Shown here piece by piece: positions 5,940-50,514 of a DNA stretch of 64,000 nucleotides. The stretch covers positions 20,961 to 84,960 of the IMG/VR virus record IMGVR_UViG_3300049216_000317; one strand, written 5' to 3'. A program made the translations under genes and the position numbers. The notes below the pieces were generated by a model. That model had not been told where the DNA came from, did no database searches, and saw only the letters and a list, made by a program, of their open reading frames with translations. This stretch comes from a virus. Lineage: Duplodnaviria > Heunggongvirae > Uroviricota > Caudoviricetes. How positions within the stretch are numbered: the first letter of the stretch is position 1; each line of letters starts with the position of its first letter.

Positions 5940-5989
5940 GCTATTAGCTATTTTCAACTTTAAGATTACGATTGAAGCGCTAATAGCGC
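5940..5989 (+). promoter_or_regulatory. Upstream region of dNMP kinase gene containing GCTATTAGC, CTATTTTCAACTT and inverted repeat GCGCTA-A-TAGCGC
   Basis: GCTATTAGC at 5940-5948, CTATTTTCAACTT at 5948-5960, GCGCTAATAGCGC at 5977-5989; the same motifs recur upstream of other plus-strand genes (see findings). Confidence 0.4.
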
Positions 5990-7677: not shown

Positions 7678-9063
7678 TTACAGTTGGCCAGTGATATTGT
7701 CCAACAGAACGTTTTTGCGTGGCTGATATGCAGCGAGTGACAAGAAGCGGAACGATGCTTCAGGCAAGCTGAGATCAGAGATCGCAAGTTTCAGTTTCGA
7801 GAACGGAGCCAATTGAGCGAAGCCCAAAGTGTTGGCTTGGATCAAGAAACCAGTCACTGAACCTGGAGCGCGGTTACCAAGATCGGTAAACACAACCGTT
7901 GAGTTCGGACCAGCGGCGACTTTACCGATGAATTTAGCTGAAGCAGCCGATCCACCAACCAACGAGCTATACACGTTGTAGTATTGTGCGCCAGAAACTT
8001 GAGTGATCGTCACGGTGACTTTGTCACCAGCAGCGGCCACAACCGCAGTTGCAGGAGCGGAAGCAACCGATTCACCCAACATTGACACTGCTGTCACGTA
8101 GTAAACGATTGAACCAGCTTGCAAGAGCGAACCAGCTGCGCCACCGTCAGCAACCGCAATGGTTGGACCAGATGGAGCGCCGATGCGTGAACGTGCAGGG
8201 CGAGTTTTGCCAGACAGGAAGCGTGAAGCTTCGAGAGCAACAACTGCTGCGGAAGTCCACTGAGTACGCAAGTGCGCGCCAGTAGCTTCTTGAGCAGAAC
8301 CTGCCAACATAATTCTTTCCTTAGCATGGGCAATTTTGTTATATGCAGAAAGGCTAATAGGATCAAGGATCAGCTTGTCAGCCGCTCCCATATTCATAGC
8401 GCTGCGCACCGAGCTATCTTCAATTACGGATTGAGTAAGAGTTCCGCCGACTGACAAAACTACAGTTTGGTCTGAGCCGTACTCCCCAAACATAAGATCT
8501 TGTGTATTCTGCTCAGCGTCTGATTGACGAACCTGAACATCCACACCGATCATGTTTGGAAGTTTAGCGATTGCGAGCGGGTTACCGTCGAAAACACCAC
8601 CGTTTGAAAAATCGGCCATTCCACGAAAGCTGTCGAATTCAATATCACCGCTTAATTTCATCGCAGCGTTTGCAGCTGAACGATCTTCGGCTTTAACACC
8701 GTCGAATGCGCCGATGAGGTTAGCGGCAACAGTCACGCGAGTAGTCGTGCTGTAGTATGCCATTGGCACAACTGCACGAACGTAGTTCGCATCGTTTTCC
8801 GTTCCGATGCCTCCTTCGAATTGGGCCGTTGCCCCGAAGATCCCGTAGTCAAGCTGACGGTTGAATTGGTGAAGTTGTGACTTCACATCTTTCACACTAA
8901 GCATTTTTTGGAGCTTAATATGGGAATCATCAAAGGTAACATTTTGCATTACCGGCGATAAGTCTTCCACTTGAAGTGCTGAGCCCTGATTGAGTTGGCC
9001 AGGCGCTGCCATTTGGCTGCCGGCTTCCAACGCTTTCATAAGGGACTGAAGTTGTTCGATCAT
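7678..9063 (-). CDS. putative major capsid protein (HK97-fold)
   Basis: 461-aa ORF placed scaffold -> this gene -> decoration protein; Ala/Gly/Ser-rich beta-type composition; flanked by terminator. No motif proof. Confidence 0.5.
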   Translation of the reverse strand: MIEQLQSLMKALEAGSQMAAPGQLNQGSALQVEDLSPVMQNVTFDDSHIKLQKMLSVKDVKSQLHQFNRQLDYGIFGATAQFEGGIGTENDANYVRAVVPMAYYSTTTRVTVAANLIGAFDGVKAEDRSAANAAMKLSGDIEFDSFRGMADFSNGGVFDGNPLAIAKLPNMIGVDVQVRQSDAEQNTQDLMFGEYGSDQTVVLSVGGTLTQSVIEDSSVRSAMNMGAADKLILDPISLSAYNKIAHAKERIMLAGSAQEATGAHLRTQWTSAAVVALEASRFLSGKTRPARSRIGAPSGPTIAVADGGAAGSLLQAGSIVYYVTAVSMLGESVASAPATAVVAAAGDKVTVTITQVSGAQYYNVYSSLVGGSAASAKFIGKVAAGPNSTVVFTDLGNRAPGSVTGFLIQANTLGFAQLAPFSKLKLAISDLSLPEASFRFLSLAAYQPRKNVLLDNITGQL

Positions 9064-10387: not shown

Positions 10388-10584
10388 TATTAAGACTCCT
10401 ATTTTGCTTAGACGAGGCCGCTAATTCGACAGCCGAACGGCTAACCTCTTGATATAACTATCTGATTGTCGCTTGGGGGTCGGTTATTAGTGATTTCAAT
10501 AACTTACGCGAGCGCCAATACGCTATTAGTCTAATTACAATTTTCAAGCAATCTTAGGGATATACGCCAAAATCGGGAGTTTTA

Positions 10585-11907
10585 ATGAATCAGGGAATGT
10601 ACATCGACGGAATCGCAAGTTCTCAAGCGATCGATACAGCGGGCGAAGTCGTCAGCATTCAAGGAATGGACATTTCTTCTTTGGTTGGTTCAGTTTTTAA
10701 CTGGGAACACAACTCAGATACGCCGATGCAAGTCGTTGGTAAGATCCTTTATGCCAAAAAGATCTTTGAAGAAGGCGATTGTGAGAATGATCGCCAGAAA
10801 AAGTGCTGGGCAAGCTGCCAAATGCCGTTTCTATATGTCATGGGCCAGCTTTTTGATGATCGTAATCCGGCAGCGAAAGAAGTCGCTGGCATGTTTATGT
10901 ACGATCAAAACGCTCCGGAACTTCCACCGACCTTAGGTTTTTCAATCGAGGGTTCAAAGATTTCCAAAGAAGGCATGATCGTTACTCGCTCGATTGCACG
11001 CAAGGTGACCATTACATGCGCGCCAGCCAACAAGACTTGCTTGGCAGGTGCTGTTCAGGACGAAGGTCAGGCGAGCCAAGATGATGACATTTCAAATATT
11101 TTTAAGACGGAGTACGTGGTTGATATGGTAAAGGCAGAGGATGCTGAAAAAATGTTGAGCAAGGCAGAAGACGAATACAAAAAAGGTAGCGTGCTTGGCC
11201 AGACGAAATCCGGCAAAGACGTTTATAGCCATGGTCCAGTTCACGCTTCTGGTTTTGATCAAAACGAACATGAAGAAGCTGCGCAAATGCACTTTAGTGC
11301 TGCCGGAAACCAAAAGGGCAATCCAAAGATGGCCCAGCATCACTACGACAAGTATAAGATGCATTCGCAAAAGATCAGTTCTATGAAGGACAAAGCTGAA
11401 CGCTTTAAAGCTTCAGCGCCAAAAACCATCTCAGAACAGCCTCCAAAGTATGGTAAGCTGCACGACCCTCGCATGAGCGGAACAGGCAAACCTCCTGGAC
11501 CAATCAAAAAAGCGATGACTGCTGATTCAGGCTTGGGCGCTCCGCAATCAAAGAACCAAGGCGCCGCACTCTGCAAACATGGCAAGAAGCCCAAAAAGTT
11601 AAAGAAATCTGATGACGTCATGGTTCCCGACGTAGGCCAAGGCCATAAAGACGATGCCCGCAATAAATCTGGTTCGGTAAAGATCGGCAAAAAGGTCATG
11701 CGCAAGTCTTCAATCTTGCAACGCGCCGAAGAAGCGTATAAAAATTGGACTAAGCGCGAAGAGTTTGAACGTTTTATGAAAAACCGCATGCCGAATCTCA
11801 CTAAGGGTGAAATTGCTGCATTCGGTCAAACCCTTGCGCTGAAAAAATCTTTGGACGCTGAAACGTTACTTGCGGATCTCGTTAATTACGAAATCAAAAA
11901 GTCCTAA
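10585..11907 (+). CDS. putative prohead protease (HK97 gp4 / S78-like N-domain) with Lys-rich C-terminal extension
   Basis: IDGIASSQAIDTAGEVV..NWEHN..LGFSIEGSK..VTITCAPAN resembles S78 motifs (His in FNHD-like box, Ser in GxSxG-like box); C-terminal ~250 aa Lys-rich. Confidence 0.45.
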   Translation: MNQGMYIDGIASSQAIDTAGEVVSIQGMDISSLVGSVFNWEHNSDTPMQVVGKILYAKKIFEEGDCENDRQKKCWASCQMPFLYVMGQLFDDRNPAAKEVAGMFMYDQNAPELPPTLGFSIEGSKISKEGMIVTRSIARKVTITCAPANKTCLAGAVQDEGQASQDDDISNIFKTEYVVDMVKAEDAEKMLSKAEDEYKKGSVLGQTKSGKDVYSHGPVHASGFDQNEHEEAAQMHFSAAGNQKGNPKMAQHHYDKYKMHSQKISSMKDKAERFKASAPKTISEQPPKYGKLHDPRMSGTGKPPGPIKKAMTADSGLGAPQSKNQGAALCKHGKKPKKLKKSDDVMVPDVGQGHKDDARNKSGSVKIGKKVMRKSSILQRAEEAYKNWTKREEFERFMKNRMPNLTKGEIAAFGQTLALKKSLDAETLLADLVNYEIKKS

Positions 11908-12064
11908 AACTTGGGAGGGCATCATGAATATTGACTCGATAAAAGAAGGACTAAAGGGCGTAGCCGAAAAAGCAGCTTCTAAAGTTCTAACCGAAAAGGC
12001 AATAGCGATGCTCTACACTCTCACCTGCCTTATTTGCCCTGACAGCGTCTGGTTCTCCGAAGAC

Positions 12065-12113
12065 TAGACTTTACCACAATTGTGGTATTTCAAAGCTAGC
12101 CCCTACCACAACT
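12065..12113 (+). promoter_or_regulatory. Two copies of palindromic operator-like site ACCACAA(T/C)TGTGGTATT upstream of RtcB gene
   Basis: 12065-12081 ACCACAATTGTGGTATT (perfect 14-bp palindrome) and 12097-12113 ACCACAACTGTGGTATT; centre-to-centre 32 bp; TTGCAA -35-like hexamer immediately follows. Confidence 0.5.
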
Positions 12114-12165
12114 GTGGTATTGCAAAAGCACAGTTTTCATTGCACTCTTTTGAAACGGGGTGACA

Positions 12166-13353
12166 ATGCAAACTATCTATGATCCTAACGAACAAAAAGT
12201 TCCAATCAAAATCTGGTCGCAATTGGACACTGTCGAATTGGGCGCCATCCAACAATTAAAGAACACGGCATCGCTTCCCTTCGTGTTCAAACACGTGGCG
12301 GCGATGCCCGACGTCCATTTTGGTATGGGCGCAACAGTAGGTTCTGTCGTTGCTACAAAAGGAGCGATTTGCCCTGCATGCGTTGGCGTCGACATTGGTT
12401 GCGGCATGATGGCCGTAAAGACCGATCTCGACCACCGCGTGGTCCAGGACAAAATCGCTGAAATTCGCCATTCAATCGAACGTTCAGTTCCGGTAGGCTT
12501 TGGCCAAAACAATCGTTACACGAAAGAAGTGGAAGATTATGCAGGTTGGAAAACATTCACCGAAGCAAACATGGGTTCAAAGAACCTTCTCAAAAAAGCT
12601 CAACATCAGCTTGGTTCTCTCGGGGGCGGAAATCATTTCATTGAGATTTGCTTGGACACCGAAAATTCCGTTTGGGTTATGCTGCATAGCGGTTCACGAG
12701 GTGTCGGAAACATCTTGGCCTCACAGCACATCGACAACGCAAAAGGATTGATGAAGAAATTCTTTGTCGAGTTACCTGATCCGGACTTGGCATTCCTTCC
12801 GATGCACACGAAAGAGTTCGATGATTACATTCGCGATCTGAATTGGGCGCAGGAATATGCCTTGGAGAATCGCGCGGAAATGATGCGACGAGTCCTAAAG
12901 GACCTTTCGTTCGCTGTTTATAAAGAGGACGGAAGAATCGCAAAATCGTATGAAGTGAATTGCCACCATAACTATATTGCGTGGGAACATCACTACGGAG
13001 AAAACGTAATGGTCACTCGTAAGGGCGCTGTTCGCGCTCGCAAGGGTGATTTGGGAATCATCCCCGGAAGTATGGGAGCTAAGTCTTTCATTGTTGAGGG
13101 ACTCGGGAATCCGAAGTCTTTCAATTCCTGTTCACATGGAGCCGGACGCAAGATGTCGCGTACTAAGGCTCGCAAAGCATTCACGCTGGAAGATCTGGCA
13201 GCCCAGACTCTTGGTGTTGAATGTCGAAAAGACGATGGCGTCCTAGATGAAATTCCGGCGGCTTATAAAGACATTGAAACTGTCATGGAGAACCAGAAAG
13301 ATTTAGTTCAAGTCGTCGCACAACTCAAACAGATTTTGTGCATAAAGGGATAA
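12166..13353 (+). CDS. rtcB: RtcB RNA 3'-phosphate/2',3'-cyclic phosphate ligase
   Basis: AAMPDVHFGMGATVG, GGGNHFIEI, HNY, RKGA, SMGAKS, SCSHGAGRK motifs; start taken at ATG 12166 (RBS GGGGTGA); ORF track starts at GTG 12160. Confidence 0.9.
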   Translation: MQTIYDPNEQKVPIKIWSQLDTVELGAIQQLKNTASLPFVFKHVAAMPDVHFGMGATVGSVVATKGAICPACVGVDIGCGMMAVKTDLDHRVVQDKIAEIRHSIERSVPVGFGQNNRYTKEVEDYAGWKTFTEANMGSKNLLKKAQHQLGSLGGGNHFIEICLDTENSVWVMLHSGSRGVGNILASQHIDNAKGLMKKFFVELPDPDLAFLPMHTKEFDDYIRDLNWAQEYALENRAEMMRRVLKDLSFAVYKEDGRIAKSYEVNCHHNYIAWEHHYGENVMVTRKGAVRARKGDLGIIPGSMGAKSFIVEGLGNPKSFNSCSHGAGRKMSRTKARKAFTLEDLAAQTLGVECRKDDGVLDEIPAAYKDIETVMENQKDLVQVVAQLKQILCIKG

Positions 13354-13355
13354 GC

Positions 13356-13625
13356 ATGCCAAAAAGAACATTTACCAAAGAATTTCTCACTGACGAACTA
13401 GACCTTCCTTTTTCAGCCATCGAAAAAAAGATCATTGATCAAGGCCGCTGGGAAACCCATTACGAAATCATTTTTGCTCACGAAGGCAAATATTACGCGA
13501 CGGGCTATTCGCGCGGATCTACTGAAATGCAGGATGAGGGACCAGATTTTGGTGGCGACGAAGTTGAATGCGATGAAGTTCATCAGGTCGAAAAAGTCGT
13601 TAAAGTTTGGGAAGAAGTAAAATAA
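13356..13625 (+). CDS. hypothetical acidic protein
   Basis: ORF track 13338..13625; ATG at 13356 just after RtcB stop preferred. Confidence 0.35.
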   Translation: MPKRTFTKEFLTDELDLPFSAIEKKIIDQGRWETHYEIIFAHEGKYYATGYSRGSTEMQDEGPDFGGDEVECDEVHQVEKVVKVWEEVK

Positions 13626-13650
13626 TTGACACTGCCTCTGTAGTCGCCGA

Positions 13651-13696
13651 CGCTATTAACGGGTTTAAAAGTAGTTAATAGCGGACGTGATATAAT
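13651..13696 (+). promoter_or_regulatory. Inverted repeat CGCTATTAAC..GTTAATAGCG followed by extended -10 TGATATAAT upstream of Prs-like gene
   Basis: 10-bp arms at 13651-13660 and 13674-13683; TG-n-TATAAT at 13688-13696; 29 nt upstream of GTG 13725. Confidence 0.5.
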
Positions 13697-13724
13697 CTTA
13701 ATGGTAGGCTCACTTGATTGATGT

Positions 13725-14576
13725 GTGGGTCTAAAAAGCGAACCATTTGGATATTATGGGGGCAAAATGATCTATCTTAACGGCGAAGCCGTACCTGTTA
13801 CGCATTTTCCAGACGGAACTTCTCAAGTCTGGAAGCTCGATGAAAAACACCTGAAAATTGGCGCTGATTCCCATGTGAAATGGGACTTTTCACACGAAGC
13901 CGAATTCTTTCACTTGGCTCAACTTCGTGACATTCTCGCGCTCTACCATCAAAATGTTTTTTTGACGATTTCTTACCTTCCATACGCTCGGCAAGATAAG
14001 CCCGTTTCCAACTCCGCCACTTTTGCTCTTAATACTTTTGGCAAAATACTGAGGGAAATGCGCTTTGGCGACATCGAAATCCTTGATCCTCATAGCCCTC
14101 TCATTATGCATATTGTCGGCGCGAATGACGTTTATCCAAAAGATGCTCTTCAGCGCGTCATCAAAATGACAGAATCATCCATCGTTTGCTACCCTGACAA
14201 GGGAGCACTGAACAAATATACCCAGGTCTATGACTGGCTCGGTGATAACTTCGCCTACGGCGAAAAAGTCCGCGACCAGGCGACTGGAAATATCACTCAC
14301 TACGCACTCTCCGCTAACGGCAAGGATTTGAAAGAACACAACGTCCTGATCGTCGATGATATTTGCGACGGCGGAGCTACATTCTTGATCTTGGCAAAAT
14401 CGCTTAGAGATGCGGGCGTTCCAGACGTAAACCTTTTCGTTACCCACGGCATCTTTTCAAAAGGCGTCAAAATTCTCAAGCAGGGCGGTATTAGCCGCGT
14501 CTTCACCTACGAAGGCGAGATCTTTCACGACTCGCGTGGTTGGCCCAATTCATTTTCAATAGAACGTTTTAACTGA
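13725..14576 (+). CDS. ribose-phosphate pyrophosphokinase family protein (Prs; alternatively ADP-ribose pyrophosphokinase Adps-like)
   Basis: FPDGTSQV, YLPYARQDK, NVLIVDDICDGGATF (PRPP-binding loop), THGIFS. Start alternatives GTG 13725 or ATG 13767 (RBS GGGGG). Confidence 0.8.
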   Translation: MGLKSEPFGYYGGKMIYLNGEAVPVTHFPDGTSQVWKLDEKHLKIGADSHVKWDFSHEAEFFHLAQLRDILALYHQNVFLTISYLPYARQDKPVSNSATFALNTFGKILREMRFGDIEILDPHSPLIMHIVGANDVYPKDALQRVIKMTESSIVCYPDKGALNKYTQVYDWLGDNFAYGEKVRDQATGNITHYALSANGKDLKEHNVLIVDDICDGGATFLILAKSLRDAGVPDVNLFVTHGIFSKGVKILKQGGISRVFTYEGEIFHDSRGWPNSFSIERFN

Positions 14577-14622
14577 GACTAAGGATATTTGGTCTCAATA
14601 ACCCATGGATAGGAGATTACCC

Positions 14623-16098
14623 ATGAAGAGCTTTCTGAACCCTATGTTACTTTGCGACTTTTATAAAGTTGCCCACCGTGAAATGTATCCGCAAAAAACG
14701 GAAATCGTGTATTCGACGTGGACACCCCGCGCAAGTCGTCTTAAAGGGGTCGACAAGGTCGTTGCCTTTGGATTTCAAGCATTCATCAAGACATACTTGA
14801 TTGAATTCTTTAATGAGAACTTCTTCTCACAAGACATCAATGAAATCACACGAAAGTATAAGCGCTTAATTAAGCATACTCTCGGCGTTCAAGATGCCCA
14901 GACATCGCACATCGAAGCCTTGCATGCTTTGGGGTATTTCCCCCTTTCAATCAAAGCTTTGCCTGAAGGTACGCTTACCCCACTTAAGGTGCCAATGTTT
15001 ACCATCGAAAATACGCATCCAGACTTTTTCTGGGTGACCAATTACATCGAAAGCTTAGCTTCGGCTGAATTGTGGCAGCCTTCGACTGCGGCAACTATTG
15101 CTTTGGAATACAAAAAGATCTTTTTGGACGCTGCAAAACGTACTGGTGGCGACCCGACTTTTGTTCCTTTTCAAGGACACGACTTTTCGTTCCGTGGAAT
15201 GGAAGGTCTCATGGGCGCTCTTTCGAGCGGCATGGGGCACTTAACTTCATTCGTGGGAACCGACACGATCCCTGCAATTGAAGCGATTGAACATTTGTAC
15301 TGCGGCAACATCGAAAAAGAACTGATCGGAACCTCTATCCCAGCCTCAGAGCATAGCATTCAATGTGCTTATGGGGATGACATGAAATATTTCGAAAACC
15401 TAATTACGCGCGTTCATCCAAACGGCTTTGTGTCGATTGTTTCCGATGGTTATGACTTTTGGGGAGTTCTGACAGACGTTTTGCCAGCACTAAAGGACAA
15501 GATCATGGCTCGCGATGGCAAAGTTGTGATCCGTCCTGACTCGGGAGATCCAGTTCTTATCGTATGCGGTGACCCTAATGCACCGGAAGGTTCTCCGGAA
15601 TATAAAGGTGCCATCGAGGTCCTTTGGGATATTTTTGGTGGAACCAAGACTTCTGAGGGCTTAGATCTATTGGATTCGCACATTGGCCTTATCTATGGCG
15701 ATGCTATTACTTTAGCTCGTGCAACTCAGATAACCGACATTTTGGAGCAAAAAGGTTTTGCTTCGACGAATGTAGTCTTCGGAATCGGATCGTATACTTA
15801 CCAGTACAATACTCGCGACACTTTTGGATTTGCTCTGAAATCGACTCTTTGCAAAATCGACGGAACTGAAAAACAGATCTTTAAAGATCCAAAAACTGAC
15901 GACGGAACAAAGAAATCATTGAAAGGTCGTGTTGCGGTCTTGAAAGATGCTTATGGAAATCTCATTGCGCGAGATCGTTTTGGTCTTGCCGACGAAATTC
16001 CAGGAAATCAACTTGTGGAAGTTTTCCGCGATGGTAAGCTTTTAGTCGAGCAAACGTTCGAAGACATTCGCAAGCGCATCCAGCAGGATTTAAAGTGA
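14623..16098 (+). CDS. nicotinamide phosphoribosyltransferase family (NadV/NAMPT; alternatively Namat-like)
   Basis: N-term NPMLLCDFYKVAHRE and overall length/architecture typical of NAMPT; RBS AGGAGA 6 nt upstream of ATG 14623 (track starts at 14605). Confidence 0.85.
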   Translation: MKSFLNPMLLCDFYKVAHREMYPQKTEIVYSTWTPRASRLKGVDKVVAFGFQAFIKTYLIEFFNENFFSQDINEITRKYKRLIKHTLGVQDAQTSHIEALHALGYFPLSIKALPEGTLTPLKVPMFTIENTHPDFFWVTNYIESLASAELWQPSTAATIALEYKKIFLDAAKRTGGDPTFVPFQGHDFSFRGMEGLMGALSSGMGHLTSFVGTDTIPAIEAIEHLYCGNIEKELIGTSIPASEHSIQCAYGDDMKYFENLITRVHPNGFVSIVSDGYDFWGVLTDVLPALKDKIMARDGKVVIRPDSGDPVLIVCGDPNAPEGSPEYKGAIEVLWDIFGGTKTSEGLDLLDSHIGLIYGDAITLARATQITDILEQKGFASTNVVFGIGSYTYQYNTRDTFGFALKSTLCKIDGTEKQIFKDPKTDDGTKKSLKGRVAVLKDAYGNLIARDRFGLADEIPGNQLVEVFRDGKLLVEQTFEDIRKRIQQDLK

Positions 16099-16556
16099 GC
16101 AAAGTAACGGTCATCAAGAAAAGTCTTTTTGATGCCCCACCGGGCTCCCTCATTGTTCACGCGTGTAATACGCGGGGCATGTGGGGCTCCGGTATAGCCA
16201 GGGAATTCGCTTTGCGTTTTCCCTGGGCTCACCGCGTTTACAGTCGTCATTGTCATCAAGCGAAAGAAGCCGATGGCACAGCGCCTTCTCTTTTGGGTAC
16301 ATCGCTGATTATTACTGAAGGTGAGCACATGGTCGGCTGCCTTTTTACTTCTGCGAGCTATGGTTCTGATGTCGACGCTCCAGAAAAAATTCTGGATGCC
16401 ACTCGACGAGCCATTGCGGATCTGATTCGTTTGAACGACGCAAAGTGCCCAATTGCACTTTGTAAAATCAATTCGGGACTCTTTAAGGTTCCTTGGGATA
16501 AAACCATGGAAATCCTAAATGAATTTAACCAGGAGTTTACAGTTTATGAGCCTTAG
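16095..16556 (+). CDS. macro domain protein (ADP-ribose binding/processing)
   Basis: SLIVHACNTRGMWGSGIAREF (cf. IVNAAN..GGGV..AI) and IALCKINSGLFKVP (cf. IAFPxISTGxxGxP); GTGA overlap with NAMPT stop. Confidence 0.6.
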   Translation: MSKVTVIKKSLFDAPPGSLIVHACNTRGMWGSGIAREFALRFPWAHRVYSRHCHQAKEADGTAPSLLGTSLIITEGEHMVGCLFTSASYGSDVDAPEKILDATRRAIADLIRLNDAKCPIALCKINSGLFKVPWDKTMEILNEFNQEFTVYEP

Positions 16557-17685
16557 CCTTCCCACCCTTTATAAAAAAGCTTCTACCGGCAAAATTCAGC
16601 AATGGAATATCCATGTTGAACCTGGGGCGATGCAAACGGCATGTATTGTGACTCAACACGGGCAAGTTGGCGGAAAAATCCAAGAGACCAAAGACTGGAT
16701 TGAAGAAGGTAAAAATCTTGGCAAAGCCAATGAGACTTCGGAGCTTCAGCAGGCAGAAGCCGAAGCTAAAGCCAAATGGGAAAAGAAAAAGAAGTCTGGT
16801 TACGTTGAGACTTTAGACGGTGCAGAGGCCGACGAAACTGATGATTTGATCGAAGGTGGCATCGTGCCGATGCTAGCGCAGTCGTTTTCAAAACACGCGC
16901 AGAAGATCAAATATCCTTGCTACGCGCAGCCGAAACTGGATGGCATTCGTTGCATTGCCATTTTAAAAGACGGCGAATGCACTCTTTGGTCGCGCACGCG
17001 AAAGCTCATCACTGGCGTTCCGCATATCGCGCGAGAAGTTGAGAAAATGTTCAAAGGTTTGGACATCGTTTTGGATGGTGAGCTTTATAATCATGAACTC
17101 AAGAAAGACTTCGAACAGATTGTCTCTTTTGTGCGACAAGAAGAGCCTCAGCCCGGATACGACATCGTCGAATACCACATTTACGATGTAGCTAACGGAG
17201 ATATGTTTCACCAGCGGTGGGAGAATTTCATTCGCCGTCTTCCTAAAGATCGTATTCTTTCGCGCAAAATCCATTTCGTTGAGACGGTTTTGATCGACGA
17301 TGAGCCATTTGTTGCCGAACTCTTCGAAAAGTTTACTGCTAGCGGATATGAAGGTTTGATGCTTCGTAACTACGATAGCAAATACGTTAACAAGCGCTCA
17401 TACGATCTTCAAAAGGTAAAAGAGTTTGAAGACGCTGAATTCAAGATCGTCGGCATTAAAGAAGGGCGAGGTAAGCTTGCGGGCCACGCGATTCACGTTT
17501 GCGAAGACGAAAAGGGTGAACAGTTCGACGTGAAAATGAAGGGCGAAACTGCGGTACTCAAAAAACACTTCGATGATCATTCTCTTTGGAAAGGCAAAAA
17601 AATGACGGTCCAGTTCCAGGGCCTAACGGGAGCCAACCAAGTTCCGCGCTTTCCTGTTGGAAAGGCAGTCCGTGATTACGAATAA
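16546..17685 (+). CDS. ATP-dependent DNA (or RNA/DNA) ligase
   Basis: Motif I KLDGIRC (adenylation Lys), DGELY, EGLMLRNYDSKY, downstream KVKEFEDAEFKIVG OB-like region; RBS AGGAG before ATG 16546 (track 16519). Confidence 0.75.
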   Translation: MSLSLPTLYKKASTGKIQQWNIHVEPGAMQTACIVTQHGQVGGKIQETKDWIEEGKNLGKANETSELQQAEAEAKAKWEKKKKSGYVETLDGAEADETDDLIEGGIVPMLAQSFSKHAQKIKYPCYAQPKLDGIRCIAILKDGECTLWSRTRKLITGVPHIAREVEKMFKGLDIVLDGELYNHELKKDFEQIVSFVRQEEPQPGYDIVEYHIYDVANGDMFHQRWENFIRRLPKDRILSRKIHFVETVLIDDEPFVAELFEKFTASGYEGLMLRNYDSKYVNKRSYDLQKVKEFEDAEFKIVGIKEGRGKLAGHAIHVCEDEKGEQFDVKMKGETAVLKKHFDDHSLWKGKKMTVQFQGLTGANQVPRFPVGKAVRDYE

Positions 17686-17968
17686 AATTATCGGTCTCTT
17701 TTTAATGTTTGGCGTGTTCGCGGGCTGCTCTCGAAGCCAAAATGAAATTGGCCGAATGGAAGACCGTTACGAGGCAGTTTGCGTTCAGCGCGAAACCAGC
17801 TATGGCTATGGGGTTACTTCCCACGGACATGTCGTGTCCACGCGTACACGAAACTGTGTACTGCATGCATGCGAGCGCAGTACGGTATTGATTGGCAAAT
17901 ATTGGTGGAACGACACGAAACTTAGCAGTTCCCGAGTTTCTATGAGCGAGTGCGAAAGGTATTTATGA
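17672..17968 (+). CDS. putative small lipoprotein (6 Cys)
   Basis: MITNKIIGLFLMFGVFAGC lipoprotein-type signal peptide with lipobox FAGC; RBS GGAAAGG 6 nt upstream of GTG 17672; overlaps ligase 3' end. Confidence 0.4.
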   Translation: MITNKIIGLFLMFGVFAGCSRSQNEIGRMEDRYEAVCVQRETSYGYGVTSHGHVVSTRTRNCVLHACERSTVLIGKYWWNDTKLSSSRVSMSECERYL

Positions 17969-19707: not shown

Positions 19708-21522
19708 TTAATCCTCATCTTCGTCGAGCATGTCTTCAACTTCGAGTTTCAAGAAGTCGAAAGCAAACGGCTTAGGAGCGTAATAAGCTTGCAAAGCAGC
19801 CGGGTTGGTTTGAGCAAGAAGCTGCATGTTTTGGAGTGCGAACGGATCACGCTTGTACTTCAGAACCGGATCAAGGCTTGACGCTGGCGATCCAAAGAAG
19901 CGTGTGCGGATCTCGCCTACATCGACGTACTTATCCAAAATCAACTGGAAGCGCTCAGAGAATGGGAAGCGTCCGCCAACAACTTCGCCGACAGTTTCCT
20001 TGCCCACTTCGAGCAACATTTCGTCGTAAGTCATGTGAAGAGCGGAGTCTTGCTGCAAGCGAGTAGACTCTTGCTCTTTAGATTGGGCGTCTAGACCAGC
20101 AAACGTAATCGTACAGATCTTCGCAAGCAACGGGTCCATGATCGGAAACAAACGTTGGTTAAAGAAAGTCTGGAATGAAAGAACCAACGGGCGAAGACCT
20201 GTGTCTCGCGAAGCCGTCAATTTGAATTCGTTTGAGGATTCAGAAAGCGTTTGAGAGTTTGTCCCTTTGCTTAAATGACCATAGCCAGGCAGTTCGTCAG
20301 GCGACATATTGAATGCCGAGAGAATGTTGCGCGCCATTTGGTCATAAAGGTACTGGAAAGCACCGTCATGTAGACCTTCGTCATTGAACGGAACCCACTG
20401 AACTTTATCGTCTTGCCCTACACCAAAAATCGGCGTGCGGAATGAGTTCGAAACGCTATTGATTGAAGCGTTAAACTGAGCCTTGATAGTGTTAACCACT
20501 GCCTCGTCGACCTCATCCGATGCAATTACTAGCATCCCTTTCGAGGCACGACCGTTTTGGAAATAGAGCTTTTCATAAGCATCAATTGAGATATGCGTAG
20601 TGACTGCGTTGACTACAGTATCTAGCGGAGAAACTGGGTAGCCATTATGTTCAACGTCGGTAGACTCGTAAAGGTTATAGACGAGCATTTCTTCGTGCGT
20701 GAACGCTTGGCGCGGAGTCTCATCAATAACCTGGACCCATGCGTACTTATCTTCGGCCACTTTGGACAGATCAATGTCCATTTTGATGCCGGTGATAGAT
20801 TCAAGCATTTTAACCGCTTGTTTACGAAGAGAATCTCCCTCGTGTTCATTGCGGCGAACGGCACGACGAATCGTTGCCGTATCGACTGGACGGAATCTAT
20901 GAAAAGGGAATGAGCCATCAGCGTTTTTCTTCTCGCGATCATAGATAACTTCCGTCGCAAAACGTCCAAAAGTAAGGCCGTTATTGGTCTGGATATTTAA
21001 AAACGATGCAAGGGTCAGCTGATCTTGGGTTTCTAGGCCATCCGTAGAACCGCAATTGAGCAGTTGTTGCTCAAAGCGTTTCATGCGGACTTTAACTTTC
21101 ATGTATTGATTCGGAGTCAGAATTTTTAGGATTTCAGGCTTGATCGCGATTTCGATTCCGAGATCAAAGCGGTCTTTACGCAAATGGCCAAAAAGTGCCA
21201 TCATGTTTCCGCGCGCACGCAAAATCGCTGCAACCAAATGGTCGGTCAGACGAATTTGTTTTAAGAGCGAATCAGGAATCAGCTGCTTTTTGGTCTTATA
21301 AAAACCAACGTAGTTATCGGAGTGGTTTGGTTGCTCAATAAACGCTAAGCGCGGAGCATTTTTGTCGGCACTTCCCGTTGCTTGATCAACAACCCATTGA
21401 AGGGCACCGGCTTGAGTCGTGAGATCCTTTTTTTCGGATTTCTCTAGAGCTTCAATGTGGGAGTCAGCAATATCAAATACTGCCTTTGGCGACTCCTTTT
21501 TCTTCTTTGGCGTTCTGCTCAT
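19708..21522 (-). CDS. putative portal protein
   Basis: 604-aa ORF downstream of terminase large subunit, acidic C-terminus (DMLDEDED); size/position typical of portal; no motif proof. Confidence 0.55.
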   Translation of the reverse strand: MSRTPKKKKESPKAVFDIADSHIEALEKSEKKDLTTQAGALQWVVDQATGSADKNAPRLAFIEQPNHSDNYVGFYKTKKQLIPDSLLKQIRLTDHLVAAILRARGNMMALFGHLRKDRFDLGIEIAIKPEILKILTPNQYMKVKVRMKRFEQQLLNCGSTDGLETQDQLTLASFLNIQTNNGLTFGRFATEVIYDREKKNADGSFPFHRFRPVDTATIRRAVRRNEHEGDSLRKQAVKMLESITGIKMDIDLSKVAEDKYAWVQVIDETPRQAFTHEEMLVYNLYESTDVEHNGYPVSPLDTVVNAVTTHISIDAYEKLYFQNGRASKGMLVIASDEVDEAVVNTIKAQFNASINSVSNSFRTPIFGVGQDDKVQWVPFNDEGLHDGAFQYLYDQMARNILSAFNMSPDELPGYGHLSKGTNSQTLSESSNEFKLTASRDTGLRPLVLSFQTFFNQRLFPIMDPLLAKICTITFAGLDAQSKEQESTRLQQDSALHMTYDEMLLEVGKETVGEVVGGRFPFSERFQLILDKYVDVGEIRTRFFGSPASSLDPVLKYKRDPFALQNMQLLAQTNPAALQAYYAPKPFAFDFLKLEVEDMLDEDED

Positions 21523-22512: not shown

Positions 22513-24387
22513 TCAGAAATCGAAGAAAAAGCTGCCCTTTTTGCCCTTAGTCCCCGTGAATTGGCCTCCCGGCTGTATGTGACGATTGATTTCATCGCGC
22601 ATTTGCTCCTGATGGAGTTCAGAACCCATATTTGGGGTGATTTGTCGGGGGGTTCGTTCGTCGACACCGGACTGGACCGCTTTCAAACGAAACGGACCTT
22701 TTATGGGAAACAGGTTTTGGCCCAAATAGCGCAAAGCATCGCAAATATCGGCGATTCCAGGCTCATCGTCTGGCTGTCCGGTAGGATTGCCCTGTCCGTC
22801 CAGTTTGAACTTATGCTTTTGCATGGCTGTTAAAACCTTCATCGTATTTTCGGTTTTAATGATCTTGAAAAGGCGCTTGCCGGATGCGGTAAGGATTTTT
22901 GAGCGAATCGATTCGATTCCTGCGGAGACATCCCTTGTAAAGACGGGCGCGCGCATAAAGTTTTTGTTGAAGGATTTAAGGAAAGATGGCTCTGCTTGAT
23001 CGCAGAACCATTTGTTCAATGGATATTTGTCGCGAAATTTAATTGCAACGTCCAAGACGTCCGAAAATTCCATTCCAGTAGAAGTCCAACAGTCAACAAT
23101 CCAAACTTCACCGTTGGGCATCATAGCTGCAATAATGATAACGCTGTCGTGCGTGAATCCCCAGTCGACGCCGGCATACATGGGAATTCCAAGCCTTACC
23201 AGTTCGTTAAAAAGAGCTTGTTCCGTCGGGTAATTGACCTCGATTCCAAGCAAGCCTTCCAAAGCACGTTTAATTGAAATGTAGTTTGTGGATTCGGCAT
23301 CAAGATTTGAATTCAGGCGACCATACACGAGACCTTGAGAGCCGGGCTTCCAGCAAAGAAGTTGAGACTCTGCAATCTCAGGGCTGTTTTCTCTAAACTT
23401 CTGAATGACGGTCTTGATTGGCTTATAGAAACCATCTTTTGCGCTGGAAGGAAGTTGGCTCAGGCGCATTCGGCAAATGGGCAAAAGCGAGCACTTTACG
23501 CAACCTGCATGAACGTTTTCAAGCTTATCGAATTTGACCTGTTCTGGAAGCGTTAGGAAATCGTACTTCTCTTGATTTAGCTGCTGAAGCGGAAGAGATT
23601 TTGCCACGTACATTGTGGTTTTTTCTTCCAATGGCAAATGACGTTCCGGCCCACAGACTTCTGTGACATCAAGAATATTCCAACGAAGAAGTTTGTAGTT
23701 CATTTCGTCGGCTTTTGTGATCATTTCGGCCATGAGACCGAATGAGTATTTTCGAGTCGAAAGGAAAAGAGTGAAGGGATGAATTTTACGAGAATATCCG
23801 ACGATGTTTTTGCCCTCATTCAAGGCAGATCGATCGGCAAGATCAAGCTCGTCAACAACGAGAATATTCGCATGCAACGAGTTCATACCTTTAGGCGTAC
23901 AAATAACGACTTTAATAAAAGGCTTTTTCCCGGAAGGCGTTAGAAACTCGAAAGTACGTTTGTTTTGCGAAGAATTTGTCCAACCAGCGGCTGCCAAAAG
24001 AGGTTCGAGCTTAAAAAAATAGCCTTGGATGTATTTCAAACAAACTGCGGACTGAGATTCGACGGCAGCTGCGTGAGCAATTTCGAGTTCGAAATGCAGC
24101 ATCAAAATGATCTCTAGGATCGCGCAAGATACGGTCTTGAGGCATTCACGTGCTGAAAGCCAAATGGCTCCTGGCGTGTCTCCCTTATTGTGCAAGAATG
24201 ACTCATATACTTGCCAAATAGCATCGACAGGGTTTGACGTACTCTCACGATCGGTGATCGTATTCGGGTACTCCATATCCAAGAATGCTTTGATCCAATC
24301 CTTAAGTTCGTCTGGCGAACTCAAGTGTTTGAACATCAATTCAGCGTAAAATTTCTTTTCTGGTTCAGATAAAGTCTTAAAGTTCAT
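22513..24387 (-). CDS. terminase large subunit
   Basis: ATPase-like SARECLKT (deviant Walker A), ILVVDELDLAD (Walker B); C-terminal nuclease-like region IIIAAMMPNGEVWIVD; start ambiguous (ATG 24387 or TTG 24456). Confidence 0.65.
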   Translation of the reverse strand: MNFKTLSEPEKKFYAELMFKHLSSPDELKDWIKAFLDMEYPNTITDRESTSNPVDAIWQVYESFLHNKGDTPGAIWLSARECLKTVSCAILEIILMLHFELEIAHAAAVESQSAVCLKYIQGYFFKLEPLLAAAGWTNSSQNKRTFEFLTPSGKKPFIKVVICTPKGMNSLHANILVVDELDLADRSALNEGKNIVGYSRKIHPFTLFLSTRKYSFGLMAEMITKADEMNYKLLRWNILDVTEVCGPERHLPLEEKTTMYVAKSLPLQQLNQEKYDFLTLPEQVKFDKLENVHAGCVKCSLLPICRMRLSQLPSSAKDGFYKPIKTVIQKFRENSPEIAESQLLCWKPGSQGLVYGRLNSNLDAESTNYISIKRALEGLLGIEVNYPTEQALFNELVRLGIPMYAGVDWGFTHDSVIIIAAMMPNGEVWIVDCWTSTGMEFSDVLDVAIKFRDKYPLNKWFCDQAEPSFLKSFNKNFMRAPVFTRDVSAGIESIRSKILTASGKRLFKIIKTENTMKVLTAMQKHKFKLDGQGNPTGQPDDEPGIADICDALRYLGQNLFPIKGPFRLKAVQSGVDERTPRQITPNMGSELHQEQMRDEINRHIQPGGQFTGTKGKKGSFFFDF

Positions 24388-24444
24388 ATAGTTAAGATTG
24401 CCGCATAATTTGACATTTAAGGCGCAATGCGCTACATTTGACCG

Positions 24445-24861
24445 ATGAGTGACCAAGATACGTTCACAAAGACGTGTCAGGCGTTGGCCATTGAATTAAA
24501 AATCAACTTTTATGTGGGGCGTCCTGGTAGGTGTTTCCGTAATGTCATGGCCTTTGCTTATGCGAATCCCTCATGGACAATCGTTCATGGATTGGCAAAA
24601 CAGTGCAAAGACGGCCCGCTCTTATGTCATGCTTGGTGTGAAACCAGGGTTAACATAGGCGATCGTAAACATTGGGTGGTTCATTGCCCAAGCCAGCATC
24701 CTGAATCTCCGAATTTTGGAGGAGTCCAGCTTCATCCTTTTTTCTACAAAGCATGTCGCGTTGCTTTCACCCGCAGATACACTTTCGAAGAAGCTTACAA
24801 GCAGTTGGAAAAGACCAACAATTATGGTCCCTGGGACCCAAACTTTTTAAGTTACTGCTAA
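24445..24861 (+). CDS. hypothetical Cys/His-rich protein
   Basis: 138-aa ORF; divergent from terminase. Confidence 0.4.
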   Translation: MSDQDTFTKTCQALAIELKINFYVGRPGRCFRNVMAFAYANPSWTIVHGLAKQCKDGPLLCHAWCETRVNIGDRKHWVVHCPSQHPESPNFGGVQLHPFFYKACRVAFTRRYTFEEAYKQLEKTNNYGPWDPNFLSYC

Positions 24862-27977: not shown

Positions 27978-29480
27978 CAGTTAACTATCGAAAGTCCGAG
28001 TCGGGCTTATTTGAGCGAATTTAGTTCAGCGGAGATCTTGGATCTTCGGCGTGAGCTTTCGTATGTAAAAGAATCGGTACGGCATCAGCTGAAACGAACG
28101 CAGCAAAATCACTGGTTCAGATCTCAAAACCCAGAAGGCTGGCAGAAAACCTGCGACGAACTGAAGTCGCAAATCAATCAGGTCGCAATGTGGACCGATA
28201 ACGGACGTCCTTATATTCGACCAGGCTCAATACCTTTCATCGAAGGTAAGGAATGGAATATCCAGTCCAAGGTCCAGTACCCAAAGTTTAAGAAAATTCC
28301 TTGGGCCAAACCATTGCCGTTCCAACTTCACCCTTACCAAGAGGAAAGCTGGGATGCTTTGCTGGCTCATCGTCATGCGAACGTTGCGCTCTGCACAGGT
28401 TCTGGCAAAAGCCCCATCATCTTGAAGGTTTGTCGCGAAGCGGGATTGTCGGCAGCGATTATTGCGCCTTCAAAATCTATTTTCTATGAACTCAAGGAAA
28501 AGTTCGAATATCACTTTGGCAAACAATACGTCGGAGCCTTTGGCGACAGCAAAAAGGTACTTGGTAAGCGGTTTACGATTTGCATTTCCGATTCGCTTTG
28601 TAACCTGAAGCCGGGAACCAAAGAGTACGACTTCTTTTCCAAACTAGACATGATGCTCGTTGACGAGTCTCATACGTTCGCTGCCGAAACCCTTGAGGAA
28701 GTCTGTCACGGTGTCTTAAAAGACGTTCCCTATCGATTCTTCTTTAGCGCAACGCAAACGCGGGGCGACGGAACAGAGAAGCTACTCCAGAGCATCATTG
28801 GCGAGACTGTCTGCGAACTTTCAACAGGTGAAGCGGTTGAAAAAGGCTACATTGCGGATCATGAATTCCGGGTTGTAGCCGTGCGATCTACAAATCTCAA
28901 CTATTCCGGCGCTGATCCATTAGAGGAAAAACGAGTTCATTTCCTTCGCAACCAGAATATCGCTAATTTCATAGCTAAATTTGCCAATGCTGACGCTACG
29001 ATCAATGGAAAGCAAACATTGGTTTTAGTTGAAGAAATGAGCCAAGTCGCAGCCCTTGCGAAGCTCTTAACGGTGCCATTTGCTTATGCTCATTCAGAAA
29101 AGAACAAAGATCGTCTCGAAGAATTGGGACTTCAAAAAGTTGATCCGGCTGAAACAGTAGAAAAGTTTAACAAGAACGAGGCCAAGGTCCTGATAGGCAC
29201 TTCTTGCGTGTCGACAGGAACCAATATTTTTCCGACCCACAATGTATTCAATTGGGTTGGCGGATCTTCAGAAATTAAGACGAAACAGGGAGCCGTCGGA
29301 CGTGCTGTTCGAAAGCATGAGGCCAATCCATGGAAAGAGCTCTGCGTCTACAAGGATAAGGCGATCATTTTTGATTTCGATATTGTCGACGTTCCCAAAA
29401 TGGCGATTTCGCTCGAAAAACGGCTTGATTGCTACAAAGAATCCAACCGCCCAATTAAATACATAAGGACAGCACCATGA
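27978..29480 (+). CDS. superfamily-2 DNA/RNA helicase (UvsW-like)
   Basis: Walker A ALCTGSGKSP, DExH box MLVDESHTF, motif VI QGAVGRAVRK; start taken at first in-frame ATG 27978 (track TTG 27858). Confidence 0.75.
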   Translation, partial: QLTIESPSRAYLSEFSSAEILDLRRELSYVKESVRHQLKRTQQNHWFRSQNPEGWQKTCDELKSQINQVAMWTDNGRPYIRPGSIPFIEGKEWNIQSKVQYPKFKKIPWAKPLPFQLHPYQEESWDALLAHRHANVALCTGSGKSPIILKVCREAGLSAAIIAPSKSIFYELKEKFEYHFGKQYVGAFGDSKKVLGKRFTICISDSLCNLKPGTKEYDFFSKLDMMLVDESHTFAAETLEEVCHGVLKDVPYRFFFSATQTRGDGTEKLLQSIIGETVCELSTGEAVEKGYIADHEFRVVAVRSTNLNYSGADPLEEKRVHFLRNQNIANFIAKFANADATINGKQTLVLVEEMSQVAALAKLLTVPFAYAHSEKNKDRLEELGLQKVDPAETVEKFNKNEAKVLIGTSCVSTGTNIFPTHNVFNWVGGSSEIKTKQGAVGRAVRKHEANPWKELCVYKDKAIIFDFDIVDVPKMAISLEKRLDCYKESNRPIKYIRTAP

Positions 29481-30103
29481 AACAACCAAAGATGACTCGA
29501 TATTTTCTACTCCTGATGTTTGTCGTGTTGTCATACTCTTTCGTCTTTACGTCACTAGAAGTAAATGCGCCGGATTTTAAAAACGTAGATACGATGGTCC
29601 GCGCGGCATCCGATGAACTCTTTGATTTTGCAGAACAATATTTAAACGCTCACCCCGATGAGTTTCCAAACAAAGCCTATATCACGGTCGTTGATTATTC
29701 TTTGCCATCAAGTCAGCCCAGAATGTACGTCAAAAATCGTACAAGCGGAGTGATTCGGGCAATTCACGTTGCTCACGGAGCCGGGTCTGATCCTGAAAAT
29801 ACCGGAACCCCGATTCGTTTTAGCGATGCCAACGGTACTCACGAATCATCACTTGGCTTTTACCGCGTCAGCGAAACCTTTTCTGGAACTCACGGAATCG
29901 AGATCGCTTTAGATGGACTTTCGCCTACAAATTTGCATGCGCGGGAACGTGCGATCTTGATTCATTCGGCAAATTACGTTTACGATACTAACCTAAAAGC
30001 GGGAATGAGTTGGGGCTGTTTTGCTATTAGCCAGGCCAACCATGACTGGGTTATTTCTGCTTTAAAGGGCGGAAGTCTCATGTATGTCGGGCAGGGCAAA
30101 TGA
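29477..30103 (+). CDS. secreted YkuD-like L,D-transpeptidase-fold protein
   Basis: Signal peptide MKQPKMTRYFLLLMFVVLSYSFVFTSLEVNA; catalytic-like HSANYVYDTNLKAGMSWGCFAIS (His..19 aa..Cys as in YkuD). Confidence 0.5.
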   Translation: MKQPKMTRYFLLLMFVVLSYSFVFTSLEVNAPDFKNVDTMVRAASDELFDFAEQYLNAHPDEFPNKAYITVVDYSLPSSQPRMYVKNRTSGVIRAIHVAHGAGSDPENTGTPIRFSDANGTHESSLGFYRVSETFSGTHGIEIALDGLSPTNLHARERAILIHSANYVYDTNLKAGMSWGCFAISQANHDWVISALKGGSLMYVGQGK

Positions 30104-31544: not shown

Positions 31545-31553
31545 GACTAATAT

Positions 31554-31566
31554 CTATTTTCAACTT
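31554..31566 (+). promoter_or_regulatory. CTATTTTCAACTT motif (second copy) upstream of SPFH gene
   Basis: Identical 13-mer at 5948-5960; followed by TTGCAA. Confidence 0.35.
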
Positions 31567-31615
31567 GCAAAATAGTTACTAGCAATTTAACTTTTCTTAT
31601 TCCATTGGAGGGAAA

Positions 31616-32422
31616 ATGAAATTTGCTATTTTGGTTGCCATGTTTGCTGCATCGATTACTGTTGGTTGTACTCGCGTTGATCAGGGAGAATTCGGTATTG
31701 TAAAGCACTTCGGCGGATCGGTTGACGATGCTCCGGCAGGAGCAGGATACAATATGACGCTCTTCTCATCGATTGAAACGATTGATGCCACAGAAATTCG
31801 CGTTCCAATGAAAGATTTGACGCCCAAAGACAAAGACGGCGTTCTTTTCACGCTCGACATGACTGTTACCTACAAAATCAATCCTGAAAAGGCCGTTGGT
31901 TTTTACAAACAGACTCATGAAGTCGACAAAATCGTAGAAAACAACATTGCGAACAATGTGCTCGGGTATCGCGTCCTTGAAGACGTTGTCGCGAACTCTT
32001 CGACGAAAGCCTTCAATGACTTTACCGTTGCCGAGATTGGGCCGCGGCGTAGTGACATCGAGCAAAAGATGAAAGAAATCATCCAAGCCAAGATCGACGC
32101 TCGCTATGCAGACGCATTTCAAATCGTAAACGTGAACATCAATCGCACAAAACTGGGCGATTCGGTGGAACAAGTTCTTCAAAGCCAAGCGATTGCCAAG
32201 TCTCAGCGCACTTTGCTGGACCTTCAACAGCAATTGGCCGAAAAAGAGACTGATCTTTTGAACAAAAAGTTTGAAGGAATGAAGCGCATTTCAAATACTT
32301 ACGGCATTCCAGTTGAGCGTGTCATGAATTATAAAGTTCAAGAGCAATATAATGGCGTTCTTTCTGAAATTGCTAAAAACCACCAGGGCACGACCTTGGT
32401 CAATGTAAATCAGAAAGAATAG
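31616..32422 (+). CDS. SPFH/band-7 (prohibitin/HflC-like) lipoprotein
   Basis: Signal peptide plus lipobox MKFAILVAMFAASITVGC; VDQGEFGIVKHFG SPFH signature; coiled-coil C-terminus. Confidence 0.7.
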   Translation: MKFAILVAMFAASITVGCTRVDQGEFGIVKHFGGSVDDAPAGAGYNMTLFSSIETIDATEIRVPMKDLTPKDKDGVLFTLDMTVTYKINPEKAVGFYKQTHEVDKIVENNIANNVLGYRVLEDVVANSSTKAFNDFTVAEIGPRRSDIEQKMKEIIQAKIDARYADAFQIVNVNINRTKLGDSVEQVLQSQAIAKSQRTLLDLQQQLAEKETDLLNKKFEGMKRISNTYGIPVERVMNYKVQEQYNGVLSEIAKNHQGTTLVNVNQKE

Positions 32423-32426
32423 TTTG

Positions 32427-44715: not shown

Positions 44716-44765
44716 ATTTTTATTGCCTATTTACTATTTTCTACTAAGCTATTAGCGAGGTAGGG

Positions 44766-46634: not shown

Positions 46635-46635
46635 T

Positions 46636-50493: not shown

Positions 50494-50514
50494 TCCTTTC
50501 TATTTTGTTTGCTA

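Follow-up and report, generated by a model that had tools for sequence, protein, structure and literature searches.

A probable variable accessory slot beside the prohead-protease gene of an Mx1-like phage, with genes for predicted NAD+ reconstitution, RNA repair and DNA ligation

NARP1, a phage NAD+ reconstitution pathway, consists of two enzymes: the Prs-like Adps, which converts ADP-ribose (ADPR) to its pyrophosphate (ADPR-PP), and the NAMPT-like Namat, which joins ADPR-PP to nicotinamide to give NAD+. About 4% of sequenced phages encode it, and the defences that it counters are Thoeris, DSR1/2, SIR2-HerA, and SEFIR (Osterman et al. 2024, 10.1101/2024.02.11.579819). The published operational criterion for the pathway is an Adps gene adjoining a Namat gene. 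In fifteen percent of NARP1 operons there is an additional gene, for the Poa1p-like macro phosphatase Adpp, which converts ADPR-1''-phosphate (ADPR-1''-P), the product of aRES defence, to ADPR; the extended pathway was named NARP1-AP, and Adps, Namat, and the macro protein together overcome aRES (Osterman et al., bioRxiv 10.64898/2026.01.28.702374). Here, genes of these three types were examined in a 64-kb stretch (the window) of a Caudoviricetes contig, IMG/VR record IMGVR_UViG_3300049216_000317, from a phage of roughly 164 kb that is related to Myxococcus phage Mx1. They lie in a block of nine consecutive plus-strand genes, which is probably a variable accessory slot downstream of a divergent prohead-protease gene, made up of at least three separable modules and thus a mosaic rather than an integrated cassette.

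The gene bounds in the window were defined from an open reading frame (ORF) listing with inspection of start codons and Shine-Dalgarno sequences, and the block was found to span 10585-17968:

10585-11907, plus strand: prohead protease, 440 aa
11924-12067, plus strand: 47-codon ORF with no assigned function, preceded by a GGGAGG Shine-Dalgarno sequence and called as a gene on the public contig
12166-13353, plus strand: RtcB, a 3'-phosphate/5'-OH RNA ligase (Pfam, PHROG)
13356-13625, plus strand: acidic protein of the phrog_6343 family, 89 aa, isoelectric point 4.6
13767-14576, plus strand: Adps, Prs-like, 269 aa
14623-16098, plus strand: Namat, NAMPT-like, 491 aa
16095-16556, plus strand: Poa1p-like macro-domain protein, candidate Adpp, 153 aa
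16546-17685, plus strand: ATP-dependent DNA ligase with an N-terminal DNA-binding extension, 379 aa
17672-17968, plus strand: putative lipoprotein, 98 aa, with a signal peptide followed by FAGC

Public gene calls for the same contig (164,531 bp) match the refined starts from the 47-aa ORF through Namat. Minus-strand head genes were found on both flanks, comprising the major capsid protein (7678-9063) on one side and the portal (19708-21522) and large terminase (22513-24456) on the other, and a scaffold-like acidic protein is also among them. The protease gene diverges from a minus-strand 153-aa head-module gene. Its product is 38% identical (E = 2e-41) to the N terminus of the Mx1 "putative prohead protease," with a weak match to phrog_1028; the opposite-strand block therefore opens at 10585 with a genuine head gene. 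An earlier note on this DNA, made from the letters alone, had described an island of six coupled plus-strand genes starting at 12065 inside a minus-strand head block. The surrounding head genes bear out that placement, whereas the start moves to 10585 and the co-oriented genes number nine. Only four junctions in the block are tight: a 2-nt gap between the RtcB stop codon and the 89-aa gene, a 4-nt overlap (GTGA) at the Namat stop codon with the macro gene, and overlaps of 11 nt between macro and ligase and 14 nt between ligase and lipoprotein. Gaps of 141 nt and 46 nt precede Adps and Namat, each of which has its own Shine-Dalgarno sequence. The family names given in the note were all upheld, on the plus strand and at the places stated, by profile searches (Pfam, PHROG, NCBIfam), as was the acidity of the small protein.

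The base composition of the island is unremarkable, and no match to it was found by megablast among 50,697 phage records. Family searches with the 47-codon ORF also gave no match. Scans of the whole window for tRNA genes and Rfam families found nothing, which leaves no phage tRNA or known RNA element in the window with which RtcB could be connected. At its far end the block meets a convergent 256-aa head-module gene, whose 3' end overlaps that of the lipoprotein gene by 6 nt (17963-17968); no terminator-like hairpin was found between the two.

The gene content of this position was compared across 72 loci of related phage contigs in IMG/VR, which were collected by capsid and portal queries; the longest of these contigs are about 150-177 kb, with capsids 55-82% identical. 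A protease query of IMG/VR, a search that depends on exact peptide patterns, returned no confirmed relative. The protease gene was divergent from the capsid genes in 50 of the 72 loci. Downstream of it, 9 loci carried Adps and Namat, 15 carried the ligase, and 4 carried the macro gene, while RtcB, the 89-aa protein, and the lipoprotein were found in none. The presence of RtcB between the protease and NARP1 is therefore due to a lineage-specific insertion. The slots of the relatives also differ among themselves, with the order protease-x-HNH-Adps-Namat-NADAR-Macro in one and Adps-Namat...2-oxoglutarate (2OG) oxygenase...ligase in another. Neighbours seen across the loci L183 (1179-5187), L140 (1068-6510), and L037 (10951-14420) were NADAR by Namat and macro, HNH before Adps, a 2OG-Fe(II) oxygenase, and a GIY-YIG endonuclease-like gene between Adps and Namat. 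These neighbours suggest that homing endonucleases may drive NARP1 mobility.

The closest cultured relative, Mx1 (OR576727), has homologous capsid (52%), portal, terminase, and protease genes and likewise carries opposite-strand cargo genes between a portal-side gene and the protease. Unlike in the window phage, the protease gene of Mx1 runs in the same direction as its capsid genes, and the slot holds four small unassigned genes. Mx1 encodes NAMPT and NMN adenylyltransferase (NMNAT), a NARP2-like pair, elsewhere in its genome (locus L002, 110248-128679) rather than NARP1. Its macro protein is 45% identical to that of the window and is encoded ∼4.4 kb from the NMNAT gene. Related phages thus use different NAD+-rescue routes with the same macro gene.

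Assignment of the NAD+ module was based on residue-level comparison with solved or characterised enzymes. The Adps-type gene lies directly next to the Namat homologue across the 46-nt gap, the arrangement by which NARP1 is operationally defined. The 269-aa protein matched phrog_619 (E = 9e-60, 203 bits) and fell below every NCBIfam cut-off for true Prs, the best being TIGR01251 at 84.5 bits against 113, with the equivalog models far below theirs. It is 32% identical to the validated SPbetaL1 Adps. Residues were numbered on ORF228 of Vibrio phage ICP1, which agrees exactly in numbering with the structural paper (PMC13586617). In this alignment F18, R87, H121, D161, the catalytic K185, I194, D212, and D213 are all kept. 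The PP loop reads DDICDGGATF in the window protein and DDICDGAASF in ICP1 Adps, with DDICDG common to both, and further differences are F92V, V195T, C197Y, and F223I. Judged by its sequence, the window Adps is distinct from canonical ribose-phosphate pyrophosphokinase.

The best solved matches of the window Namat were chains 9w5x and 9w5w, at 629 bits versus ∼205 bits to true NAMPTs. These chains were deposited as nicotinamide phosphoribosyltransferase and are 491 and 496 aa long, the same length class as SPbetaL1 Namat (PMC12774641), which they may represent. Crystal structures of SPbetaL1 Namat define a selectivity-clamp helix with the consensus GSX-phi-X-phi-X-phi-TRD, where X is aromatic (PMC12774641). 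The window Namat is 60% identical to SPbetaL1 Namat from the phage record, and its helix, GSYTYQYNTRD, fits the consensus. At 20 of the 21 positions mapped on SPbetaL1 (20 NAD+ contacts and Y394) the residue is identical, the sole change being F392Y, and the stacking residue R40 of the selectivity-clamp loop is kept. The true NAMPT of Mx1, taken as a control, reads GGALLQMVNRD and differs at seven clamp positions. By these comparisons Adps and Namat are identified as NARP1, so that the suggestion in the earlier note that the Prs/NAMPT pair belongs to a phage NAD+ reconstitution pathway is upheld and made specific. The validated NARP1 operons of the Bacillus phages SPbetaL1 and FADO differ from the window in host lineage, and in the stretch inspected around them no gene for a macro protein, RtcB, or a ligase is a neighbour.

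The macro-domain protein was found to match PF01661 (E = 1e-12) and phrog_335, "phosphatase." Among solved structures its best match was yeast Poa1p (6LFQ, E = 7e-19), with the next macro domain (1e-3) sixteen orders of magnitude behind. The motifs HxCN, GxWGxGIA, and INSGxF are common to both proteins, while S30 of Poa1p is Met in the window protein. The gene directly adjoins Namat and so lies within two genes of the NARP1 pair, the distance used to define NARP1-AP. On gene content and residues, 13767-16556 is thus read as a NARP1-AP core; this pathway was described, and its structures characterised, in 2024-2026. Its three protein types are those of the operons of Osterman et al., with Adps and Namat adjoining, a Poa1p-like macro gene in the operon, and the Adps and Namat active-site and specificity residues conserved. 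The order here is Adps-Namat-macro, whereas it is Adps-macro-Namat in the Vibrio phage example; the window macro protein belongs to a different branch, nearer yeast Poa1p; and the pathway, predicted here from its genes, sits in a head-module cargo slot.

The RtcB protein matched PF01139 (E = 3e-129, residues 32-397) and phrog_1075 (E = 4e-145). Its motifs GVDIGCG, GGGNHFIE, LHSGSRG, CHHNY, and CSHGAGR align with those of the Pyrococcus horikoshii and Thermus thermophilus enzymes. The metal-binding and nucleophile motifs DxxC, GNHF, HSGSRG, HHN, and SHGAGR are all present, with the Asp, Cys, and His metal ligands kept, and all catalytic residues are in place. Like RtcB of Escherichia coli and P. 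horikoshii, it has a full-length PF01139 domain, the metal ligands, and the His nucleophile motif HGAGR; unlike these, it is phage encoded, its surroundings showed no RtcA, RtcR, archease, or PrfH partner, and an unrelated 89-aa protein follows it. Ligation by RtcB leaves no 2'-phosphate and needs no Tpt1, so no ADPR-1''-P arises that would link RtcB chemically to the macro protein. A literature search found no experimental report on a phage RtcB, and a counter-defence role for it is accordingly a suggestion from RtcB chemistry. The note's view that RtcB would mend breaks such as those made by anticodon nucleases is plausible on this footing.

The 89-aa protein belongs to a small family, phrog_6343 (E = 2e-19), with an invariant RW...S.G.TEMQD motif; it had no Pfam or NCBIfam match. 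Its AlphaFold2 model (predicted local distance difference test score 84) found nothing below E = 0.2 in a Foldseek search of the PDB. Family members were located at 13356-13625 in the window, 2983-3255 in L005, 3004-3318 in L004, 10001-10264 in L193, and 3001-3414 in L280. The homologues adjoin Gad1 (in SPbetaL1, after Gad1), ArdA, DNA methylases, Rnl1, and a PF09414 RNA ligase, the T4-type RNA ligase 1 neighbour being that of an Aeromonas phage. These are accessory or counter-defence surroundings, and the protein is a candidate uncharacterised counter-defence protein. A role as a dedicated RNA-ligase partner was dropped, since none of 80 RtcB loci carried a homologue and its other contexts are methylases, Gad1, and ArdA. 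It is also not a Pfam RyR-domain (RyDEP) protein.

The ligase matched PF01068 (E = 1e-17) and phrog_114 (E = 2e-72), with the OB domain PF14743 below its cut-off (E = 6e-5). The best solved match was chain 6imj, deposited as "DNA ligase" (E = 8e-19), and the motif I lysine (KxDG) was read directly in the sequence as PKLDG. Nothing specific was found in the literature linking ATP-dependent ligases to NAD+ depletion. Another phage ligase near NARP1 is the DNA ligase annotated in Vibrio phage ICP1 (L276, 29815-37884), ∼4.4 kb upstream of Adps and Namat. The last protein of the block has the sequence MITNKIIGLFLMFGVFAGC... and was read by eye as having a signal peptide and a lipobox-like FAGC, in agreement with the note, although Phe at -3 is atypical; its match to phrog_32041 is weak.

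Gene identities and active-site residues in the block were observed, and enzymatic activities and anti-defence phenotypes are inferred from them for three modules. In the first (13767-16556, NARP1-AP), NAD+ would be split into ADPR and nicotinamide by an NADase defence of the host, such as Thoeris, DSR, or a SIR2-type system. Adps would then pyrophosphorylate ADPR, using ATP, to ADPR-PP, and Namat would join ADPR-PP and nicotinamide to restore NAD+; where a RES-type defence yields ADPR-1''-P, the Poa1p-like macro protein would first strip the 1''-phosphate. The weak match to the Vibrio phage Chester macro protein, described below, means that functional equivalence of the window protein to Adpp rests on its similarity to Poa1p and on gene context. 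In the second module (12166-13625), comprising RtcB and the 89-aa protein, RtcB would join 5'-OH RNA ends to ends bearing a 2',3'-cyclic phosphate or a 3'-phosphate; tRNA or rRNA cut by host ribonuclease defences would be its most plausible substrates. In the third (16546-17968), the ATP-dependent ligase, encoded beside the small lipoprotein, would seal nicks in phage DNA independently of NAD+.

Three candidate regulatory elements were read in the gaps of the block:

10522-10549, plus strand: promoter-like element GCTATTAGTCTAATTACAATTTTCAAGC, AT-rich, between the divergent genes for the 153-aa head-module protein (minus) and the protease (plus); read from the sequence
12074-12121, no strand assigned: CCACAAyTGTGGTATT, present twice upstream of RtcB, the copies 32 bp apart and each with a 12-bp palindrome; candidate operator or promoter element
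13652-13696, plus strand: inverted repeat GCTATTAAC-N13-GTTAATAGC abutting an extended -10 TGATATAAT; candidate regulated promoter of an Adps-to-lipoprotein unit

The first is ∼25 nt long and resembles GCTAWTAG-CTAWWTACAATTTTMAA. Similar AT-rich elements occur upstream of the plus-strand genes at 5999, 31616, 44766, 50819, and 58958 (at ∼5940-5965, 31545-31575, 44720-44756, ∼50500-50545, and 58917-58945), and may represent a phage-specific promoter class. The CCACAAyTGTGGTATT sites were found nowhere else in the window (4 strand matches versus 0.75 expected, a number reached by 1 of 100 shuffles). The half-site GCTAWTARC was ∼tenfold over-represented, with 12 strand matches versus 1.18 expected and none of 100 shuffles reaching 12; TGNTATAAT, with one occurrence in the window, is not significant alone. 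Half-sites formed inverted pairs at 5940/5979 and 13652/13674 and single sites at 30023, 33902, and 44748. Of the five copies outside the Adps region, three are in gaps just upstream of plus-strand genes, as is the 13652/13674 pair, and two (30023 and 33902) are inside ORFs. A phage regulator may bind GCTAWTARC. The repeats before RtcB, Adps, and the protease differ, which suggests at least two or three transcription units, these too being inferred.

A first alternative to the mosaic is the one the note had favoured, in which the genes from RtcB to the lipoprotein would form one co-transcribed, co-selected anti-defence cassette dealing with cut tRNA, depleted NAD+, ADP-ribose derivatives, and nicked DNA. 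The co-orientation of the genes and the four overlapping or nearly abutting junctions are in keeping with it. Further evidence came from two samples, the 80 phage contigs with the closest RtcB homologues and the 80 nearest Namat loci, the loci in which are phylogenetically non-independent. Adps and Namat were located 2-4 kb downstream of RtcB in 5 of the 80 RtcB loci (L008, L012, L037, L040, and L044), and a homologue of the window ligase was located within 8 kb of RtcB in 22, mostly 1-2 kb upstream. In L037 a minus-strand portal gene is followed by plus-strand RtcB...Adps-GIY-YIG-Namat. Among the Namat loci, Adps was nearby in 73, RtcB in 1, and a window-type ligase in 0; the single case, L272 from a jumbo phage, has RtcB directly upstream of Adps and Namat. 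The association of RtcB with NARP1 is therefore sporadic but recurrent, with 5/80 and 1/80 too weak for a claim of enrichment. The 22 ligase-RtcB loci are near-alike in identity and spacing and probably represent few lineages.

Some observations weigh against the mosaic. L008, a distant relative, clusters the same five functions in another order, as ligase...RtcB-x-x-macro-Adps-Namat...NADAR within 12 kb, and selection could be keeping these functions together. A generic scan for sigma-70 promoters and terminators found fewer sites than shuffled sequence contained and was uninformative. The candidate promoters were recognised as motif matches, and read-through from the protease promoter may extend across the whole block. 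On the other side, among the 72 close relatives RtcB was never found in the slot, against 9 occurrences of NARP1 and 15 of the ligase, and the subsets of slot genes differ. The nearest Namat loci lack RtcB in all but one case and this ligase in every case, a 141-nt gap with its own promoter-like element separates the RtcB and 89-aa genes from Adps, and RtcB chemistry yields no ADP-ribose by-product to connect it with the macro or NARP1 enzymes. A single co-regulated composite is accordingly unlikely. The combination is indeed uncommon, as the note had held, but its parts are known and the NAD+ pathway is already published, so the surprise is smaller than had been assumed; the earlier observation was essentially right but mis-bounded.

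A related reading is that RtcB, the 89-aa protein, NARP1-AP, and the ligase are held together by selection as an island that repairs what immunity breaks. The five-function cluster of L008 and the abutment of RtcB and NARP1 in L272 are in keeping with this reading, in which the 89-aa protein, with homologues beside Gad1, ArdA, and three unrelated RNA ligases, would be an uncharacterised counter-defence factor; its probability is low. If true, such an island would help against hosts that combine NADase and ribonuclease effectors.

It is less probable still that the macro protein is not a NARP1 accessory, and instead removes ADP-ribose from macromolecules, as against ADP-ribosylating toxins, or clears by-products of Tpt1-type RNA repair. 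Two of the comparisons tell against its assignment as Adpp. It is just 23% identical (E = 0.05) to gp175 of Vibrio phage Chester, from an Adps-macro-Namat operon, a weak match in which invariant columns H, C, N, G, G, A, I, G, L, and W are nevertheless common to both; and its closest phage homologue, that of Mx1, lies outside any NARP1 operon. Poa1p has its native role in tRNA splicing, an RNA ligase is present in the same island, and Poa1p-like macro genes were found in 2,961 phage records, mostly without NARP1, for example by the valyl-tRNA synthetase modifier gene in T4-like phages. However, RtcB-type ligation leaves no 2'-phosphate and needs no Tpt1, and a scan of the island proteins and of 30 other large ORFs found no Tpt1/KptA. 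The macro gene also overlaps the Namat stop codon, and in relatives macro is again found with Adps-Namat(-NADAR).

Least probable of all is ordinary salvage, in which the two proteins would convert ribose 5-phosphate to phosphoribosyl pyrophosphate (PRPP) and then PRPP and nicotinamide to NMN with the help of a host or phage NMNAT, as a NARP2-like or metabolic route: both proteins do fall within the Prs and NAMPT superfamilies, NCBIfam labels the 491-aa protein nicotinate phosphoribosyltransferase above cut-off, the relative Mx1 encodes NAMPT and NMNAT, and Namat keeps some PRPP activity in vitro (PMC12774641), but the Namat-specific adenine-clamp residues are all present here and absent from the Mx1 control, the Prs-like protein misses every Prs cut-off and has K185 and the PP loop of Adps, no NMNAT turned up in the window, and the adjoining pair is what operationally defines NARP1.

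A 141-aa cytidylyltransferase-like ORF (32424-32849) was considered as an NMNAT and rejected; it resembles heptose/glycerol-phosphate nucleotidyltransferases and has no similarity to the Mx1 NMNAT. Elsewhere in the window are genes for two ClpP-like proteases (36521-37381 and 40766-41407), a DnaE-type DNA polymerase III alpha subunit (46576-50250), a YkuD-type L,D-transpeptidase (29477-30103), an SPFH/Band-7 protein (31616-32422), and a CYTH-domain protein (59803-60417), an unusual accessory set for a phage.

Read as a mosaic slot, the block offers no new mechanism, since its parts are known and just their combination is uncommon. It would add a divergent, environmentally widespread Mx1-like lineage (about 150-177 kb) to the phages with NARP1-AP, and the macro phosphatase here is nearer yeast Poa1p than is that of the Vibrio phage example. 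In this lineage NARP1 appears to travel in a defined slot by the prohead protease; gain, loss, and recombination with genes for NADAR, ligase, homing endonucleases, and RtcB take place there. Searching this slot would be a practical way to find more counter-defence genes. What novelty is left concerns the architecture of the cargo slot, the macro variant resembling Poa1p, and the question of whether RNA repair and NAD+ repair are co-selected. Comparison of the window phage, with NARP1, and Mx1, with NAMPT and NMNAT, could show how relatives swap NAD+-rescue strategies.

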